A DNA stretch of 64,000 nt. Origin: an uncultured Phycisphaerales bacterium (GTDB taxonomy: Bacteria > Planctomycetota > Phycisphaerae > Tepidisphaerales > Tepidisphaeraceae). Shown piece by piece: positions 34,182 to 60,765 of this stretch. The notes under the pieces were generated by a model. It ran no database searches. It saw only the letters and a list, made by a program, of their open reading frames with translations, and had not been told where the DNA came from. Both the position numbers and the translations under genes were made by a program. How positions within the stretch are numbered: position 1 is the stretch's first letter; the number at the start of each line of letters is the position of its first letter. The stretch is taken from NCBI GenBank assembly GCA_963758525.1, contig CAVWVQ010000003.1, forward strand, positions 3,040,001 through 3,104,000, in the 5' to 3' direction.

Positions 34182-35441
34182 TCAGGGAGCCCCCATGTTG
34201 TACATATCCATAAACCGGGGGCCGATTGAGCCAATGGTCTGATTGCCGGGGTCGAGGTCCGCGTTGAAGATGGACAACTCGTCAAACATTCCCACCCAGA
34301 CGGCATTCCCGGGAAATTGTCCTACGCAAAAATTCCTGGACGTGGCCGCGGCTTTTTTCGGATAACGGCTCTCAAAGTCGATCCACAGTTTGGTCATGCC
34401 GGTGTTCGCGGCTATCAAAACTCCATTCAAATACGCCTTCATCAGCCCGGCGCGGCTGTCCTTGGTAAACGCCCACATCATCCAGTTCGAATCGGTGCCA
34501 TAGGTGAAGGCGGGATAAATCCCATCGGGCGCAACCGTGGAGTTACCGGTTTCCCATCCGACGACGGCGTTCCCCTGATTAGGACAGGTAATGTCGATGG
34601 CCGGACGCGAGGTGCTTCCTCCAAAGGGACTCCACCAGAGGAACTTGGTCCCGGCAAAGGTCTGGTTCATCTGCGGTGTGATGCAAATCCAGGCAACAAT
34701 GGTGATTGCCTGGGTTTTTTTCAGCATCTTTCCCATCATCGCGGATTGTTTTGGATCGGCGATGAAGAGGGCTGTGTTGCCGCTGCCACTTGGGTTGTAA
34801 GTGCCATCAAAATACAAGGCGGGCTTGCCTCTGAACCGCCCGTCGAAGTGCCACATATTCGTCAGCGCAGCCGTGTTCGTTTCGGGCATGAACCACGTAG
34901 CGCTTTGGGTGTTCATCAGCACGCCATCCAACGCAGAGGCGTTGTAACTGGGAAAATACTGATTCTGCACCGCCATGTTCGTGATCGCGACGCCACCCCG
35001 ATCGTTCTGAAGATTCCAGTGGAGGACGATATCCGGGTCCATCGACAAATCGCGGCTGGAGGCCTGCCAGCGGACGTAGCGCGCCTGCTCGCGGGCCTTG
35101 GAAAGTGCGGGCATCAGCAGACTGATCAGGACCGCGATAATGCCAATGACAACAAGAAGCTCTACGATCGTAAAACCGCGTCGCTGTGATGGACGACGCG
35201 AAGAGGCACCAAGGCACGAAGGCACGAAGGCACAAAGGGGGGGACGGGGGGATCGGGAGTTGGGTCTCTCTGAATGCTCTAGTTTCAACTGTTCCACTGC
35301 TCTACTATCTCGCGCAGCGTGGGGCACGGACGCACGAAGGAAAGAGTGATCGCGTCGGCTCGCCGCAGGCGGCTCGACACGCGTTAAACCTCGGGCGCCG
35401 AAGCGCCGCAAGGCTGAAAGTCGGCGTTGCACATTGCACAT
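34182..35441 (-). CDS. Prepilin-type N-methylation protein with LamG/ConA-like C-terminal domain and extended leader
   Basis: [67 protein letters not shown] (LamG pattern). Confidence 0.9.
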
Positions 35442-45468: not shown

Positions 45469-45505
45469 CGCACGGAGGCACCGAGGCACGGAGGCACGAA
45501 GGGAA
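45469..45505 (+). repeat. Tandem octamer repeat (AGGCACGA family)
   Basis: gcacggaggcaccgaggcacggaggcacgaaggg just upstream of the ATG at 45515. Confidence 0.7.
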
Positions 45506-52700: not shown

Positions 52701-54639
52701 CTAAAACGGCAACGACTGATCCATCCAATCGTCACTGCGGAGCACCTGTTTTCGATTGAACCGCGCGAATCGCTCGGCCTTGGCCTGTGCCATGGCGATA
52801 AGTCGTCCCGCACCGATGGTGCGCCAGGCCTTTCGCGCGATCGGTGCGTGACGCAGAAACAGGTCGTCTTCGGCGCAGGCAAAGAGCTGGGCGCACCCAG
52901 GATCTCCCTGACGGGCGGCTCTGCCGAAGAGCTGGCGGTCGACGCGGCCCGAGCCGTGGGGTTCGGTGGCGATCACGTGGAGACCGCCCATCTCGGCGAC
53001 GCCTTTGGCGAGCTTGATGTCGGTGCCGCGGCCGGCCATGTTGGTGGCGACGGTGATCATGCCGCGGGTGCCGGCTTCAGAGACGATCGAGGCTTCGCGC
53101 GCGGTCTGGGTGGCGTTGAGCACGCGATGCACTTTGCTTAAATCGGTGAGCCGTTTGCTCACTTCCTCCGACGCCAGCACGCTGCGGGTTCCGACGAGAA
53201 CGGGGACACCCTTCTCGTTCAGTTCGCAGACGCGCTGGATGACGGCCGTCCATTTTTCTTCCATCGTATCGAACATGCGCAGCGGAAGCAGCGTGCGGAT
53301 GCACGGGCGGTTGGTCGGAATGCGCACAACGGGGCGCTGATAGATCTGCCAGAGCTCGCCGGCAGATTCCCATGCGGTGCCGGTCATGCCGCTCATGTCA
53401 GGATACTGGCGGAAGAAGCGCTGGAAGCTGAGACGGGCGAGGTTTTCCTTGTCAGCGGTGACATTGACTCCCTCCTTGACCTCGATCGCCTGGTGCAGCC
53501 CGTGCCGCCAGCTTCGATCGGCCATCACGCGGCCCGTGAACTCGTCGATGATCTGCACCTTCCCGTCTTCGGCGACGAGATAATGCTCGTCGCGGACGAA
53601 ACAATGGCGTCCGCACAGCGCCTGCGTCACCAGCTCTTCGCGCCGGCGCTTGCCTTTCCAGAAGCCGGAGGCGGCCGAGAGTTGTTCCAGGCGTTCCTGT
53701 CCATTGGCGGTCAGATCGACGCTGCGAACCGTGCGGTCGATGGTGAAGTCGCGACCGAATTGAAGCTGCTGGGCCAGCTCGTCGGCGGCGCGGTAGTGCG
53801 TGGCATTGGGCTCGTCATCGGGAGAATTGGAAATGATCAGCGGGGTCACCGCTTCGTCGATGAGAAGGCTGTCCGCTTCGTCGACCAGGGCGCGCGCCAG
53901 GCCGGGAACCATCAGCCGCCCCGCAAAGCTGGAGGCGCCGCCGGCGAGTTGACGCACGGAGGTCTGGGTGCTGGTGCGGAGCGTGCCGAGCTGAAGCTGA
54001 TCGCGGAGGAAATCGGCCACCAGCTCCTTGCTCGTGCAGTAGACCACGTCGCGGCGGTAGTGATCGATGCGCTCATTGGCGGGAAGATCATGGACGATGG
54101 CTCCGGCACGCAATCCGAGCATGCGGTAGACCGGCCCCATCTCGTGAGCGTCGCGTTCCACCAGATAATCGTTGACGGTAATCACGTGCACGGGCCGTCC
54201 GCGCCAGGCGAGCAGCGAAGCGGCGAGCGAAGCGGTGAGCGTCTTGCCTTCCCCGGTTGCCATTTCCGCGACGGCGCCGCCGATCATCGCCAGCGCCCCC
54301 ATGATCTGCACGTGGAAGGGCCGCATTCCCAGCGCCCGCCACGCCGCCTCGGCGCCAGGGCCATGGCGCGATCTTCGGCCTCTCCCTCAAGCCGGCCGCG
54401 CCGCGCCAGCGCCGCGCATCGGCCACCGCGTCGCGAAACCGTTCGGCGCCCAGCTCGCGGATCTGAGGCTCGAGCTGCTCGATCCGATCCGCCTGCGCGC
54501 GAAGGCGCGCCAACATCGGCCGGCGGTTCTTAAACCATCCATGCACCCCGTTGGCGGCGGCGTCGAGTCCCTTGAGTTCCGGCGCTTTTACCCGCCGGGC
54601 GTCAAAGATCGCGTAAAGTTCGTCAGTGGCGGAAGTCAT
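52701..54639 (-). CDS. Short accessory SecA-like DEAD ATPase (~645 codons), frameshifted at 54340-54410
   Basis: MATGEGKT, TVNDYL, VDEADSLLIDEA, GLHQAIEVKE, GMTGTA, TNMAGRGTDI, RVDRQLFGRAARQGDPG; N-terminus MTSATDEL starts at 54639. Confidence 0.9.
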
Positions 54640-54645
54640 TGGGGG

Positions 54646-54902
54646 GAAGGCACGAAGGCACGAAGGCACGAAGGCACGGAGGGAAGAGGGAACGAGAAGC
54701 ACGAAAGGGACGAGAGGCACGAAGGCACGTAGGCACGTAGGCACGGAGGGGAAGATAGGCGGTGAAGGGGGAGGAAATTCATCGAGTTACTCATGGCCTT
54801 CTCTGATTGCTCGTAAGTGCGCGAAAACTTTGACCGAGGAAGGCACGATGCGAAAATCCGGGCCTGACTCTGATTTTCCCTTCGTGCCTCCGTGCCTTCT
54901 TC
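54646..54902. repeat. Intergenic insert bounded by inverted AGGCACGA tandem repeats
   Basis: (aggcacga)n arrays at 54648-54750 and inverted cttcgtgcctccgtgccttc at 54880-54899. Confidence 0.8.
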
Positions 54903-54904
54903 CT

Positions 54905-57096
54905 TTACATCCACGGACTGTTCTTCGTCTGAATCAACTGGAGGAACTTTCGCTTCCATTGCACGAACAACGGCGTGCTGTCGAGAGTGAAACGCACGTA
55001 CACGCGCTGGCCGGGATAGTACTTGCCGCTGGGATTCGAGACGGGGACGTCCACCTCAAACTGCTCGTTCTGCGATTTAGTGGGATCCTTGGGATCCACC
55101 GGCTCGTCTTCGCCGCCGGGCTGGGCGACGGCGGGGCTCGGGAGGTCGCGCGTGGCGGCGCCGATCGGACGCGGCGCGCCGGCGGGAACCGCCGTTCCAA
55201 GATCGCCGGCAAATTGCACCGCCGTCTTGTTCACGTGCCCGATGATCAACTGCGATTCAATCTGCTCCAGCAGCACCTTCACGGTCAGCTCGGTATTGCG
55301 GGCGATCGTGCAGATCTCCTGGCCCTTCTGGAGATAGCGACCTTCATACAGATTGATGTCGGGAGCGATCAGCTCGCCATCGATGGTCGCCCGCACGGTC
55401 AGTTCGTCCCGGCGGCGCTGCATTTCGTCGAGTTGCACCTGCAGCGTGTCAACCACTTCCTGGTCGATCGCCTCTTGAGCCGTGTCCTCGGCGCCGAGGC
55501 GAGCATCTTGATCCGAGCCGCCTGCAACTCGGCCTGCTTCTGCGCGATCTGGCTGTCGAGCTCGGGATCACGGCAGATCAGCAGCAGATCGCCGGGCGTT
55601 TTGTCATGCGGACCGTGAACCCATTGATGATCGTGCGCAATCACCTCCGTGACAAAGCCGCCGCGCCGCGCGTTGAGCTTGTCGTGCGCGGTTGCTTCGG
55701 CGATGCCGACCTGTCCGACGTGCATCGGGAAGCGGATCAGCCCGATGACGATGATCGCGATCGCCGCCACCGCCAGGCAGAACGCCGTCGCGCGGCCGCG
55801 CTTGCGATGCAGTTCCGGGTCGAGCGCAAGATACTTGAAGACTTTGACGACCGGGACCACAAGCCAGGTGATCAATCCGCCGATCGCCATCAGCATTCCC
55901 AGCACAGGGATCTGGTAGGCCACGAGCAGGATGATGAGCACGCCGATGAACGTGCGATAGATGGATGACGAAATCGCGTAGGCAAACAGCCAGAAGCGCT
56001 GCAACGGCGGAGGGAGCGGCTGCTGGAGCTTGATGCGGAACACATGCCGCTTGATCAGGCCCATCGCATATTCGGTGCTCTTCTGGCGGAGATTGGGGAT
56101 CTCCAGGAAATCGGAAAGGATGTAATAGCCGTCGTAACGGAGCAGAGGGTTGGCGTTGAAGATGACCGTCGTGACGCTCGCGACAAGCATCGCGTTGAAC
56201 GCAAGCTGGCGGACGAGATGCGTCTCGTTGGTGTTGCGCCAGACGAACGCGCAGAGGGCGGCGAAGAAGAGCTCGACGATCATGCCCGCCGCGCCGACGA
56301 AGATGCGCTGCCATTTGCTTGGGAAAGACCACGCACTGGACGCGTCAACATAGGGCGTGGGAACGAAGACCAGGAACATAATTCCCAGCTCGTGGCATTC
56401 GCCGCCAAAGCGCCGGCAGGAAAAGGCATGGCCCAGCTCATGGATGAGTTTGATGAAGACGAAGACGCTCCAAAGCCACAGCAGGTTGATCGTATTCCCC
56501 TTGATATCGACGGCGTGGCGCGCAGAGTCCTGCAGCCCGTGGGGGCCATTCCACTGGGGGGCGATCACCACCAGCGCCGAGATGATCACCGCCAGCCAGA
56601 CCACCACCCCGAGCTTGCTGAACATGACGCGGGCCAGCGGCATCCACCGGCGGAGAAACCGGTCCGGATCCCACAGCGGAATGCGCGGGAAGAGCACGTT
56701 CATCAGCCGGCCCTGCATCTTGCGCTTGGTGAGCTGCTTGTGCCGGCGGAGCAGAACCGTGGCGTCGGGCGTAACGTCGGCCTCGATCAGATTGGCCGAG
56801 TAAAGATGCGACAGAATCTGGATCACTTCCGGCTGCGTAGGCGCATCGTCGGCAAGCTGTCCGCCGCACAATTCCCACGCTTCTTCGACGGTTCGCGACC
56901 CGTCGAGCAGTCCGACGAATCGGTAAGCCGGGTCGCTGAGCCGGTGAAACTGATTGCCCGCCGGGTCGCGTACGACGTACCAGCGGTCGCCGCGATAGAA
57001 CTGACGCGAGATATGGGCGCTGACGCGCAGCCGCACGCGCAGCTCCGCAACGCGGTACCAGGACTCGGAAAAAGTGGGCCGTAGTTGGAGAGTCAT
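54905..57096 (-). CDS. PqqD-like N-domain / M50 site-2 metalloprotease / HlyD-like fusion (~730 codons), frameshifted near 55490
   Basis: FVGLLDGSRTVEE (PqqD/RRE-like), HELGH, FNANPLLRYDGYY, multiple TMs; coiled coil and VRATIDG...PGQRVYVRF in the 54905..55456 frame. Confidence 0.88.
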
Positions 57097-57114
57097 CTGG
57101 GGTTCAGTGTGATT

Positions 57115-57630
57115 GAGGGTTCAGGGTGTCAGGGTTCAGGGTGTCAGGGTTCAGGTAGGGAGGACGGGTTAAGATCCAGGGTTGGGCGCAGGGAAGCGAC
57201 GGTCGCTGGGGGCGAGTTGTTGTTCCAAAGTTCTTTCCAGTCCGTTAAGCATTTTTACGCACTCGGTATAGCGCTCGCGGTAGTCGTTATACGTTTCTTC
57301 TGTCAGGTAGCCTTTCAGCATCGCTATGTACAAGTGATGAACCGCTTCCAGCGATTCGCCCCTTGCACGGTTTGCGCCTTCAATTTTATTCCGCACATGC
57401 CGATCGCTGTGCTTCTCGGCCAGTTGCGCCGGAGCGCTGTTCGAACAGCGCCTTATCTGGGACACCAGCTCAAACCGTTCTTCCCTTGGCCATTTCGCGG
57501 ACAGCTGACAAACCTCCAAGTGCAACACGCACAACTTCTGATAAATGCTCAGATCCTCAATCCGCTTAAATCCCACCACAACCATCCCCTCCGAAATCCT
57601 GAACCCGGACCCCTGACACCCTGAACCCTC
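57115..57630. mobile_element. Repeat-bounded cassette carrying a four-helix-bundle gene (candidate intervening element)
   Basis: gagggttcagggtgtcagggttcagggtgtcagggttcagg (57115-57155) is inverted at 57598-57630; the outer 20 nt match perfectly. Confidence 0.65.
57169..57585 (-). CDS. Four-helix-bundle protein (23S rRNA IVS protein / TIGR02436-like)
   Basis: GGAGG RBS; FKRIEDLSIYQK, WPREERFELVSQIRRCSNSAPAQLAE, ARGESLEA, KGYL, KMLNGL. Confidence 0.93.
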   Translation of the reverse strand: MVVVGFKRIEDLSIYQKLCVLHLEVCQLSAKWPREERFELVSQIRRCSNSAPAQLAEKHSDRHVRNKIEGANRARGESLEAVHHLYIAMLKGYLTEETYNDYRERYTECVKMLNGLERTLEQQLAPSDRRFPAPNPGS

Positions 57631-57632
57631 TC

Positions 57633-59581
57633 TCACATCCACAACTTGAGCTTCAGGAAGTCGATCAGCCGGTGCGTCCAGATCCAGGCGACGCTGCGCT
57701 TGGCGACGTCGACGCGCGCTTCGCCTTTCATGCCGGGGCGCAGGTGGGGACGGCTTTGCCGGTGAGGGTGACGTAGACGCGGAAATTGTTGGTCCCTTCT
57801 TTCGGATCGGGAATGGGGATGATGCGCTCGACGACAAAATCGAACGAGTCGCCCGGCTGGGCGTTGGTGGCGAGGGTTCCGTGCTGGCCGATGTGAATGT
57901 TCTGGATGTCGCGGTCATCGACGGTCAGTTCGCCGCGCAGGTCGTGATCGCTGCCGATTTCGAAGAGCACGTCGCCGGTCTTGACCGGGGAATCGAGTTT
58001 ATCTTCCAGGTCACCCTTGAGGATCTCCGCGTCGACCGGGGCGACGATCGTGCCGCGGGCGATTTGGGCGCTGAGAAAATCCACTTCGTTTTTAGCTTCT
58101 TCACCTTCCGAGATGGAAACCTGTTCCTCGGCGGTCTTTTCCTCGGCGCGGTAGCGGGCGGCTTCCTTGGTCTTGGTGTTCACGCGGGCCTGCGCCTCGG
58201 CCAATTTCAGCTTCATGTCGGTGGTGTCGAGCATGGCCAGGGTCTGGCCCGCCTTGATCATGTCACCTTGACGGAGCGGCTTGCCATCCGGGCCCTTGCC
58301 CACTTCGCTGATAAAGCCTTCGAAGGGCGCGGGAATCTGGCAATGCGCCCGCGAGGCAAACTCGAACGAGGCGCTGACGTGGTACATCGGCCTGATGACG
58401 AAGATGCCGACGAGGATCAGCGCGACGCCGATGGCGATCAGCTTGCCGAGCATATGCTGCGGGCCAACGGCACGCTTGGCGAGTTCGCGGATGCTGATCC
58501 CGGCTTTGGTGATCAGCCAGCGATCGTTCTGAAATCGGTCGTACAGTTGTGGAGCCAGCAGATCGATGGCGATGCTCAGCGCCTGCCCGACGTTAGGCCC
58601 CAGTTTTTCCTGCGCGGGGAATTCGGCGGTGATGACGCCGATGATCTCATCGCGCCGCCGCAGCGGCAGCGAGAGGACAGCGGCGCCGCCCTGCTCGCGG
58701 GAAAACGCGGCGGCTTCGCGCGTGACGTTCTGGGTGTTTTGCCCGGCGGGATCGAACTGAACGATTTCGTCCTGATCCGCGCATTCCTCCATCACCTTCT
58801 CGAGCGAGACGATCAGTTCCTGTTTCTTGTCGAATTCCTCAGTGTGCGAGATCGCCTTGACGCGGACGTTTCGCCCCTTCACCCAGCCCATGGTCACGCG
58901 CGACGCGTGCGCCCGGCCGGCCAGCTCGTTGCACAGATTCATCGCCGCCGACTCAAACCCTTCGGCCGTCGCGACGGAGGTGGAGAGCTGCAGCACGTGC
59001 TGATGGCTCTCGGCAATCAACTTGCTCTGCTCGGCAAGGCGGCGCAGGGTGAACAACTCGAAATATCCGGCCACGAGCTTCATCGAGTTGAGGCGCTGGC
59101 GGGCGCGTTCCAGATCGAGGCAGCGGGCGATGACCGCGGAGACGGCCACCACCTCGTTGTCCGCGCGCAGGAGCGTGACGAGGCAGAACTGTGTTTCGTG
59201 AGTGTCGCCGGTCATTCCCAGTTCGATTGCGCCGTCCTTCATCTGCTGCACGCAGGGAACGACCAATTCCTGGAACGCCGACACGGCCGCGGTGCGAACC
59301 TGGGCGCTGCTGTTGTCATGGCGGAGATGCGCGAGAAGGCGGAGGGAGACCGATTCGTCCGCGCGTTCGATGAGAAAGCCGACGGCTTCGGTTCCCGCAA
59401 CGGTCGTCGCCTGCGTGCTGATCAGCTCAGTGACGAATGCGGGGAGATCCCGGGCGTCGATCAGGCGCTGCGCCAGCTCCGAGCGGTGCCCGCTGGGTTG
59501 CGCGGTTCCCTGCGCCTGTTCGGCTTCAGAACTTTGCGATGATTCGACTATCCCTTCAGCCACGAATTGCTCCTTGCTCAC
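57633..59581 (-). CDS. GAF-like domain + HlyD/RND periplasmic adaptor (~650 codons), frameshifted near 57755
   Basis: GAF-like LSLPLRRRDEIIGVITAE, TM, APFEGFI..GQTLAMLD, IVAPVDA, VKTGDVLFEI; C-terminus LRPGMKGEARVDV...FLKLKLWM* ends at 57633. Confidence 0.88.
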
Positions 59582-59656
59582 TTGCGCTTGCGTGCCGCAT
59601 GCAGATCAGATCAGTTGCGGAGCTGCCCTGCGGGGCAGCCGCTAAACTTTGCCGGT

Positions 59657-60523
59657 TCAGTGCTCCGCGGAGTTGACAGATGCGACGGCGTCCGACGTCT
59701 TCACCTGCACCTGCAATCCCGATTGCCGGCCGGCGGCGTTTGCGAGTTGCAGGCGGACTTTTTGGCGATCGCTCCGGGCATCAGCCTCGGGCGCCACGAA
59801 AATGACCTGCGCCTCGAGCCACTTGTCTTCGCTGGCGTAACGCACGTCCATCATCTGCTGCTTGTGAATGTTTTTCACGACGCCTGTCGGCAGCTCTACT
59901 TCGACATACAGCGGATCGTTCTGGATGATGGTCATGATCGGCTTGGAGACATCCGAAGAGGCAGCTTCGCCGACATGCGTGTTGATCTTCGATACCACGC
60001 CCGCCACCGGACTGCTCAACTGTTTCAGTTTGATCTTCGCCTGCTCCTGCTCGACCTCCGCCATGGCCTTCTGCTTTTCCTGCTCGGCAAGCTGGATGCG
60101 AATGGCCGCGATCACCTCATTGACCTTGGCTTCTTCCAGTTCGCTCTCGCCGACGACGTTATCCTTCCGCATTTCCTGTTTGCGCTTGAGTTCAACCACC
60201 TTGGCGTCGTGATCTGCCTTGGCGGCGATGATCTGCAGATCGGAGTTGGCCTCGACTTGGGCCACTTTCACGGCGGCCTCCTCCAAGACGCAATCCTGCA
60301 CCGCGATCAGTTGGCCGGCCGTTACCACGTCGCCTTCCTTGACCGGCTCTTCGCTCACCACGCCGGGGCCGTTAAACGACACGTCCCGCGACTCGGAAGG
60401 CTTGGTGAAACCGGGATACAGCGTTTCATCGCCTTGCGCGACAACTGTCCCGGCACAAAGCAGCACCAGCCCGGCCCCGCAGCGGCCCCAAGCACCAAAT
60501 CCAGCAAATGTCTTCAAAGCCAT
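59657..60523 (-). CDS. HlyD/RND-type periplasmic adaptor (membrane fusion protein)
   Basis: Signal peptide; VKEGDVVTAGQLI, coiled coil, LSSPVAGVV, DPLYVEV, FVAPEADARS. Confidence 0.9.
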   Translation of the reverse strand: MALKTFAGFGAWGRCGAGLVLLCAGTVVAQGDETLYPGFTKPSESRDVSFNGPGVVSEEPVKEGDVVTAGQLIAVQDCVLEEAAVKVAQVEANSDLQIIAAKADHDAKVVELKRKQEMRKDNVVGESELEEAKVNEVIAAIRIQLAEQEKQKAMAEVEQEQAKIKLKQLSSPVAGVVSKINTHVGEAASSDVSKPIMTIIQNDPLYVEVELPTGVVKNIHKQQMMDVRYASEDKWLEAQVIFVAPEADARSDRQKVRLQLANAAGRQSGLQVQVKTSDAVASVNSAEH

Positions 60524-60765
60524 GAAATCTCCGACGCCAGTTCGCGTATGATTCATCTGAACAGGACCGAGGCCGGGTAAAAGCCCCTAAGCCCCACCTG
60601 CTGTCGCCACACCGAAGCTCAGTTCACTACTTCTGGATCGACATCGCGAAGAAAGCGTCTTGAGGGCGACTGGTAATTCCGCGCATTAATCGCAGAGCCA
60701 GTTTATCAGGCAACTTACCCTCGCGCCAATCCCATGCAACCGTACGCCCGCCCGAGCGGTTCGGT

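Follow-up and report, generated by a model that had tools for sequence, protein, structure and literature searches.

A four-helix-bundle gene between inverted heptamer arms in a planctomycete operon, and the gene-less arm pairs of the same genome

A cassette of roughly 520 bases, made of an intact four-helix-bundle gene between inverted arms of tandem GGGTTCA-type units, was found on the minus strand (57,097-57,632) of the window, which is the whole stretch of 64,000 nucleotides analysed here, taken from an uncultured Phycisphaerales bacterium (genome G000). The genome holds one copy of the gene against about 40 gene-less GGGTTCA pairs, and each of six genomes with a close gene has only a single one, which speaks for the cassette as the gene-bearing founder of the gene-less pairs, with a protein that would drive their spread via its own repeat. 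We give this founder reading an even chance.

Structure of the Cassette and Its Operon

The layout proposed in the original prediction, with inverted GGGTTCA arms around an intact gene, was confirmed and is non-random (Table 1). The arms (33 and 41 nt) form the top inverted repeat within 55500-59500; their longest perfect complement is 20 nt at the outer ends (57630 against 57115), and the predicted energy of the arm duplex is -72.5 kcal/mol. Folding of the RNA, which had been suggested as a check, gave -223.7 kcal/mol for 571 nt (z -5.53; 0/100 shuffles as good). The spacing was also as described: the 5' arm begins 2 nt past the upstream TGA that ends at 57633, and 18 nt separate the 3' arm from the downstream ATG at 57096, which has no GGAG-type motif; we add to this description the detached unit that ends only 3 nt ahead of the ATG. 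The missing Shine-Dalgarno (SD) motif was rejected as a sign of coupling, since among the 4475 genes predicted by a simple caller of our own just 1062 carry such a motif. For the cassette gene the likely start is the GTG at 57579, 8 nt after GGAGG, the ATG at 57585 lying only 2 nt after it.

The arms are built from tandem 7-8-mers, not short palindromic REPs, and four G-tracts are present in the 5' arm. No promoter-like site was found in the cassette, no rRNA match within 54000-60000, where it lies between protein-coding genes, and no fitting family in Rfam (one weak snoRNA match stayed below threshold). No target duplication is visible in the sequence, as had been stated; a near-identical empty site for exact comparison was not found. 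Sequencing run X1 gave only short pieces, with no joint across the cassette. Its record 5 is a near-identical contig over window 56909-57096 (1 difference in 188 nt), with a match that ends exactly at the downstream ATG and 45 letters left over, and may represent a strain with a different junction.

Table 1. Features of the cassette and its surroundings (window positions).
Feature	Position	Strand	Basis or remark
TGA stop of upstream GAF/HlyD-type adaptor gene (host)	57633..57635	-	C-terminus conserved in 29 relatives
5' arm, four purine-rich GGGTTCA/GGGTGTCA-type units, 2 nt after stop	57598..57630	-	sequence, inverted-repeat search
GGAGG, SD-like motif of cassette gene	57588..57592	-	sequence
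Four-helix-bundle gene TIGR02436/PF05635, intact; likely start GTG 57579 (alternatives ATG 57585, GTG 57576)	57169..57579	-	profiles, fold
3' arm, five pyrimidine-rich units, reverse complement of 5' arm	57115..57155	-	sequence, fold
Detached extra TGAACCC unit, 3 nt ahead of downstream ATG	57100..57106	-	sequence
ATG of downstream M50-type peptidase/HlyD gene (host), without SD motif	57094..57096	-	sequence, profiles
Gene-less element, GAAGGCAC unit, next junction of same operon	54640..54900	-	22-nt empty spacer there in G002

The host operon runs in the order HlyD-type, GAF/HlyD-type, cassette, M50-type peptidase/HlyD, and SecA-like; its genes (window 52701-60556) encode two HlyD-type adaptors, an M50-type peptidase fused to an adaptor, and a SecA-like ATPase, which looks like an uncharacterised export system. 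A search of 61 genomes found the peptidase in 49. Apparent single-base frame breaks interrupt three operon genes, at about 57740, 55470, and 54400; the first two have single long frames or conserved C-termini in relatives, and the breaks are probably long-read assembly errors. The GAAGGCAC element lies at the M50-SecA-like junction; in other genomes this place is taken by a 22-nt spacer (G002), by a REP-like hairpin that directly follows the stop (G001), or by another heptamer pair (G024). Further GAAGGCAC arms occur in the window at 35210-35233 and 45474-45497, with no same-family partner under the pattern used.

The Cassette Protein

The protein scored 76 bits against the TIGR02436 profile (cut-off 24) and 84.8 against PF05635 (cut-off 33.8), the latter being the sole cargo domain. 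Its predicted structure consists of four long helices (pLDDT 93.9), and the best fold match of this model is Xcc0516 (2GSC; TM 0.92, E 1.7e-5). The likeness to the diversity-generating retroelement (DGR) accessory protein Avd, noted earlier, was recovered as a weaker match of the model (4DWL; TM 0.64-0.76, 10-11% identity), and the score against the Avd profile NF033474 was 21.5, compared with a cut-off of 80 bits. Seven pairwise comparisons gave pS of 0.67-0.90 against pN of 0.16-0.20, indicating that the gene is under purifying selection. The protein matched none of the phage records, and its tree, built by a quick method from 44 rows, is mostly unresolved. The cassette gene is a member of the TIGR02436 family; it is not an rRNA intervening sequence (IVS), not a REPIN, and not Avd.

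The Same Junction in Related Genomes

Thirty loci among 52 matches were read at the orthologous junction, and the 29 besides the window were classed by eye. None of these holds a TIGR02436 gene of the cassette type, in agreement with the expectation that the gene is no fixed member of the operon, and the empty sites that had been called for were found as eight plain spacers of 12-65 nt (one of them from G004, on which none of the conclusions rests); a fixed operon member is rejected. Eleven junctions carry paired 7-8-mer arrays of ten different units, and the other ten carry inserts of 97-448 nt, several of them REP-like. G001 and G002, of the same genus as G000, have gene-less GGGTTCA arms there; in L037 the junction is occupied by another four-helix-bundle gene (26% identity), accompanied by a unit of its own. 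The cassette itself is present at this junction in two loci from other searches, L073 (M50 88.5% identical) and L040 (65%). In the M50 tree L040 is not sister to G000-G002, with weak support, and judged from these sequences the trees do not settle gain versus loss at the junction.

The acp-fabZ junction is gene-bearing in G001 and G002, while G000 lacks such arms there. When some 390 kb of G001 and about 400 kb of G002 were compared with G000, the few junctions recognisable as orthologous had diverged too far for exact ends to be placed; three gene-less pairs of G001 correspond to plain spacer in G000. A search for exact empty sites within the genome returned only self-matches and GCGAAGAC copies among the matches listed.

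Insertion Contexts and Subfamily-Unit Pairing

From 52 loci screened, two duplicates, three near-identical copies, and seven more distant loci were dropped, leaving 40 with at least 57% identity (window included). A GGGTTCA 5' arm was found in 31 of them, a 3' arm in 32, and both in 25; seven of the nine loci without a 5' arm share an unrelated upstream insert, and the remaining two comprise one with a single unit and one that lacks a flank. The group of cassette genes around L085:1-1104 (also L084, L090, L092-L094, L099, L101) mostly lacks an adjoining 5' arm, and a divergent ORF of at least 368 aa without Pfam match, possibly an unknown insertion element, lies directly upstream.

An upstream gene is clear and co-directional in 27 of the 31 loci, with 16 different upstream contexts, so that on sequence grounds the unit looks mobile, as suspected before. 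At these 27 loci the gene-bearing cassettes sit tightly between stop and start: the arm starts -1 to +14 nt from the upstream stop (-1 to +5 in 24), and the next start follows mostly 1-23 nt beyond the 3' arm. The gene is retained at some sites across distant lineages and hence moves rarely. Among eight G000 junctions orthologous to GGGTTCA cassette sites, three hold some array, one of them with a GGGTTCA unit; this is above the background of about 8%, and such junctions are possible hot spots.

Other family members have arms as well, which the original prediction had made a test. By eye, seven of the eight family loci of the genome have paired arms, each with a different unit, and GAATGAC-type arms accompany 19 of 20 loci of a second subfamily, whose gene in G000 lies at C3:3373154-3373492. 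Among five loci of only 42-48% identity, AGGTTAG/AGGTGAG arms replace GGGTTCA in four.

Heptamer Arrays across the Genome

The genome contains 484 arrays of period 7 or 8, compared with 6-46 for six other periods. Eleven unit families gave 756 arms, with 196 pairs purine-first and 25 in the reverse order, which merged into 173 loci; 42 of these are GGGTTCA loci, one with the gene and 41 gene-less. Measured against gene calls made with our simple caller, 52/125 outer ends are no more than 20 nt from a stop, where uniform placement would give 10.7%, and 17/131 are equally close to a start (8.9% expected); for GGGTTCA alone the counts are 22/40 and 8/34, respectively (the start enrichment is mild, p 0.009). 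A register-free count of unit variants was discarded as dominated by one long GGAGCCA array.

The GGGTTCA loops are mostly unrelated to one another. With a DNA profile of 34 cassette genes, no gene remnant was detected in the 25 gene-less GGGTTCA loops of at least 40 nt, 22 shorter loops falling outside this search. Mixed pairs occur at 35 loci, with the purine arm leading and the pyrimidine arm belonging to a different family (none in the reverse order); they suggest nested insertion or independently placed arms, although degenerate same-family partners could have escaped detection. Behind the RNase III gene stands a long gene-less GGGTTCA pair (G000:C5:211309-211474) that begins within the stop codon of that gene. 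At G000:C3:275448-275795 a GxxExxY gene (PF13366, PD-(D/E)XK) is framed by GCGAAGAC arms, a nuclease-bearing parallel to the GGGTTCA cassette; there are 23 GCGAAGAC loci, and near-identical gene-less copies with a 104-nt loop occur among them.

Co-occurrence of Gene and Repeat

A single draw of 401 genomes from the class included six with a close gene, at one match each (one of these matches includes a TGA). The (GGGTTCA)3 array occurs in all six (7-118 matches) and in 11 of the 395 gene-negative genomes (Fisher p 2e-9, which, like the p-value below, is overstated because related genomes are not independent and genomes are incomplete). Within the taxonomic family the arrays were found in 5/5 gene-positive versus 4/59 gene-negative genomes, and all five relatives carry them also on contigs other than that of the cassette. 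One of the 11 array-only genomes has 22 matches; five of the 11 were re-searched at E 1e-6 and gave no close gene, and two of these five have distant family genes with other units.

The GAATGAC subfamily and its unit repeat this co-occurrence more loosely. Among 101 genomes, at least five matches were found in 16/29 gene-positive versus 9/72 gene-negative genomes (p 2e-5, at a threshold chosen after the data were seen); seven of the 29 gene-positive genomes have no exact match, and no gene was found in the richest genome (G430, 120 matches). Co-occurrence is also expected if the cassette carries its arms along.

Comparison with Known Systems

The cassette resembles the ORF-bearing IVSs of 23S rRNA (S23p; Coxiella burnetii, Leptospira) in protein family and terminal stem. 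PMC4990558 describes a stem of 28 bp and heptamers in the arm (GACAGAT) for the Coxiella IVS, which is cut by RNase III, is patchily distributed like the cassette, and contains an ORF that looks decayed. In contrast, the cassette lies between protein-coding genes rather than inside an rRNA gene, its gene is preceded by a good SD motif and evolves under purifying selection, and it has dozens of gene-less relatives with the same unit.

The GGGAATC pairs of Xanthomonas are gene-less (70 pairs in Xcc) and are likewise convergent period-7 arrays, in which, read on the sense strand, the G-rich arm closely follows a stop and the other arm closely precedes a start (PMC4692102); this arrangement recurs here, as convergent period-7 arrays with a purine arm no more than 50 nt past a stop. 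The available parts of the papers on Xanthomonas and Beggiatoaceae name no cognate protein (PMC4692102, PMC4679880), unlike the case of the cassette. The supplement of the former lists an Xcc array 6 nt after the bccP stop that overlaps the start of XCC0516, with no partner listed; in the text available, XCC0516 appears only as a row of that supplementary table and not in the main text. In Beggiatoaceae the TAACTGA arrays lie before starts, and the available text raises a binding protein as a mobile element and leaves it unnamed (PMC4679880).

Like REPIN/RAYT systems, as described in the accessible text of PMC3337134 and PMC3733652, one gene flanked by repeats stands beside many gene-less inverted pairs, and several families have their own genes. 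RAYTs are listed as single-copy, and a single-copy cognate gene with many gene-less inverted pairs was found here too. Unlike RAYTs, the protein is not an HUH (Y1) transposase and has no known catalytic site; the arms are tandem heptamers instead of palindromic REPs, and the loops are mostly unique. Avd (PDB 4DWL, 8UB7; PMC10053308) has the same four-helix fold, but the protein is far below the Avd family cut-off and there is no reverse transcriptase in the window. Unlike MITEs or insertion sequences, the GGGTTCA family lacks near-identical dispersed copies, which were seen only in the GCGAAGAC family.

The literature search, which did not reach most subscription journals and bioRxiv supplements, found no paper that connects PF05635 subfamilies with families of dispersed heptamers. 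Gene-less pairs (Xanthomonas) and heptamer-armed rRNA IVSs have been published separately, and the link to a PF05635 protein is unpublished as far as searched.

Proposed Mechanism and Alternatives

The best reading, one that could equally well prove right or wrong, is that a non-catalytic, Avd-like protein is paired with a repeat family of its own in the manner of RAYTs and REPINs. The protein, as an Avd-like non-catalytic oligomer, would bind its cognate unit in single-stranded nucleic acid and serve as a specificity adaptor guiding a borrowed enzyme. The chemistry would be supplied in trans, by a reverse transcriptase as first guess, because Avd serves one, and by an HUH transposase as second. 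The genome has six reverse transcriptase matches, none within the window, which by their motifs we take to resemble group II intron enzymes, and none of the 19 Y1_Tnp loci checked (of 23) has such arms nearby; no gene of either kind among these is linked to the arms. Lacking a promoter-like site, gene-bearing copies would persist only when sense-oriented inside operons, and the role of the stem would be to render the insert tolerable, not to couple translation. The founder reading draws on the match between unit and subfamily, the many insertion sites, the excess of gene-less pairs, the co-occurrence across genomes, the anchoring to stops, the loops free of gene remnants, and the heptamer array beside XCC0516. 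Against it stand the mostly unrelated loops, unlike copies of one master element, the arrays in 11 genomes without a close gene, and the absence of an inverted partner for the XCC0516 array in the supplement of PMC4692102.

More broadly, each Avd-like subfamily might be the adaptor for its own 7-8-base unit, with a borrowed enzyme writing arms behind stops, which would explain much of the heptamer DNA and the ORF-bearing IVSs alike; this extension is doubtful.

Passive hitch-hiking, which we consider unlikely, supposes a host-useful gene that changes site by recombination between arrays, or a unit that travels and then decays, the gene-less pairs being leftovers or slippage products. It agrees with the single-copy gene under purifying selection, with the array-only genomes, with the gene-less arms of the same unit at the cassette junction in G001 and G002, and with the HPr-ptsI junction, which has gene-less GGGTTCA arms in G000 and is gene-filled in L096. 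However, the 25 testable gene-less loops hold no gene remnant, there are about 40 gene-less pairs per gene, and of eight junctions filled by GGGTTCA cassettes elsewhere only one has a GGGTTCA unit in G000. Slippage alone explains neither the purine-first excess (196 vs 25) nor the anchoring to stops.

A host regulatory network, in which an RNA-binding regulator would recognise arrays selected after stops and act, via G-quadruplex or hairpin, on transcript ends or ribosome release, is distinctly improbable. The arrays are indeed anchored to stops, the 5' arm has its four G-tracts, and the gene is conserved and single-copy; in Xanthomonas the heptamers are transcribed, adopt G4 structures in vitro, and more often mark transcript ends (PMC4692102), and for TAACTGA of Beggiatoa a regulator that binds the repeat has been suggested (PMC4679880). 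Selected sites are at variance with ten units at one junction in 11 relatives and none in eight others, with three gene-less G001 pairs that face plain spacer in G000, and with the absence of G-tracts from most unit families of the genome (GAATGAC, ATTGCAA, GAAGGCAC).

The original prediction itself took the cassette for an mRNA-level intervening element, whose stem would join stop and start or be excised, here considered as excision by RNase III, leaving the operon coupled. We regard this as having little probability. The tight stop-to-start fit of gene-bearing cassettes stood, with a co-directional upstream gene at 27/27 loci, as did the strong predicted stem; accB and accC overlap (TAATG) in G000 and are separated by a cassette in L066, GGGTTCA ends are mildly enriched at starts, an RNase III gene is present in the genome, and RNase III cuts the heptamer-armed Coxiella IVS (PMC4990558, as far as available). 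Coupling as a general function did not hold, however. Across the genome, the elements lie close to stops much more often than to starts; arrays occupy 155/1937 co-directional, 45/564 divergent, and 38/448 convergent gaps (8.0, 8.0, and 8.5%, in the order reported), with no enrichment inside operons; of the 93 co-directional elements, just 14 have both ends within 25 nt. G-U and A-C mismatches are balanced on the mRNA strand (71 vs 69 in 89 pairs; 14 vs 15 in 25 gene-bearing cassettes). The 35 mixed-family pairs, in which degenerate partners were perhaps missed, also tell against coupling. None of the eight empty orthologous junctions has an overlapping stop and start, and as these are only 12-65 nt long, any insert would be close to both ends. 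The tight two-sided fit may have another cause, since a promoter-less gene survives only in operons with short gaps.

By the TIGR02436 description, IVS excision proceeds without re-ligation, so the mRNA would be split, not coupled. There is also the idea, for which we did not find the primary paper, that a REP-like stem after a stop stalls ribosomes. Coupling may hold at single sites such as accB-accC but is not the rule.

Implications

The proposed pairing of an Avd-like protein with its own repeat ties together three puzzles, namely a very large PF05635 family with solved structures but no function, the excess of dispersed heptamers in bacteria, and ORF-bearing rRNA IVSs. In its subfamily-to-unit form it assigns a different cognate repeat to each of two proteins from the genome. 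If, as is likely, the protein promotes the spread of its repeat, the 7-base repeats of many bacteria, so far unexplained, would have an origin. If this is true, PF05635 proteins are sequence-specific adaptors, and Avd is likely an offshoot recruited by DGRs. The broader reading, if true, would define a new class of mobile DNA whose arms travel with or without a gene, and the PF05635 family would explain much of bacterial dispersed heptamer DNA as well as the ORF-bearing rRNA IVSs.
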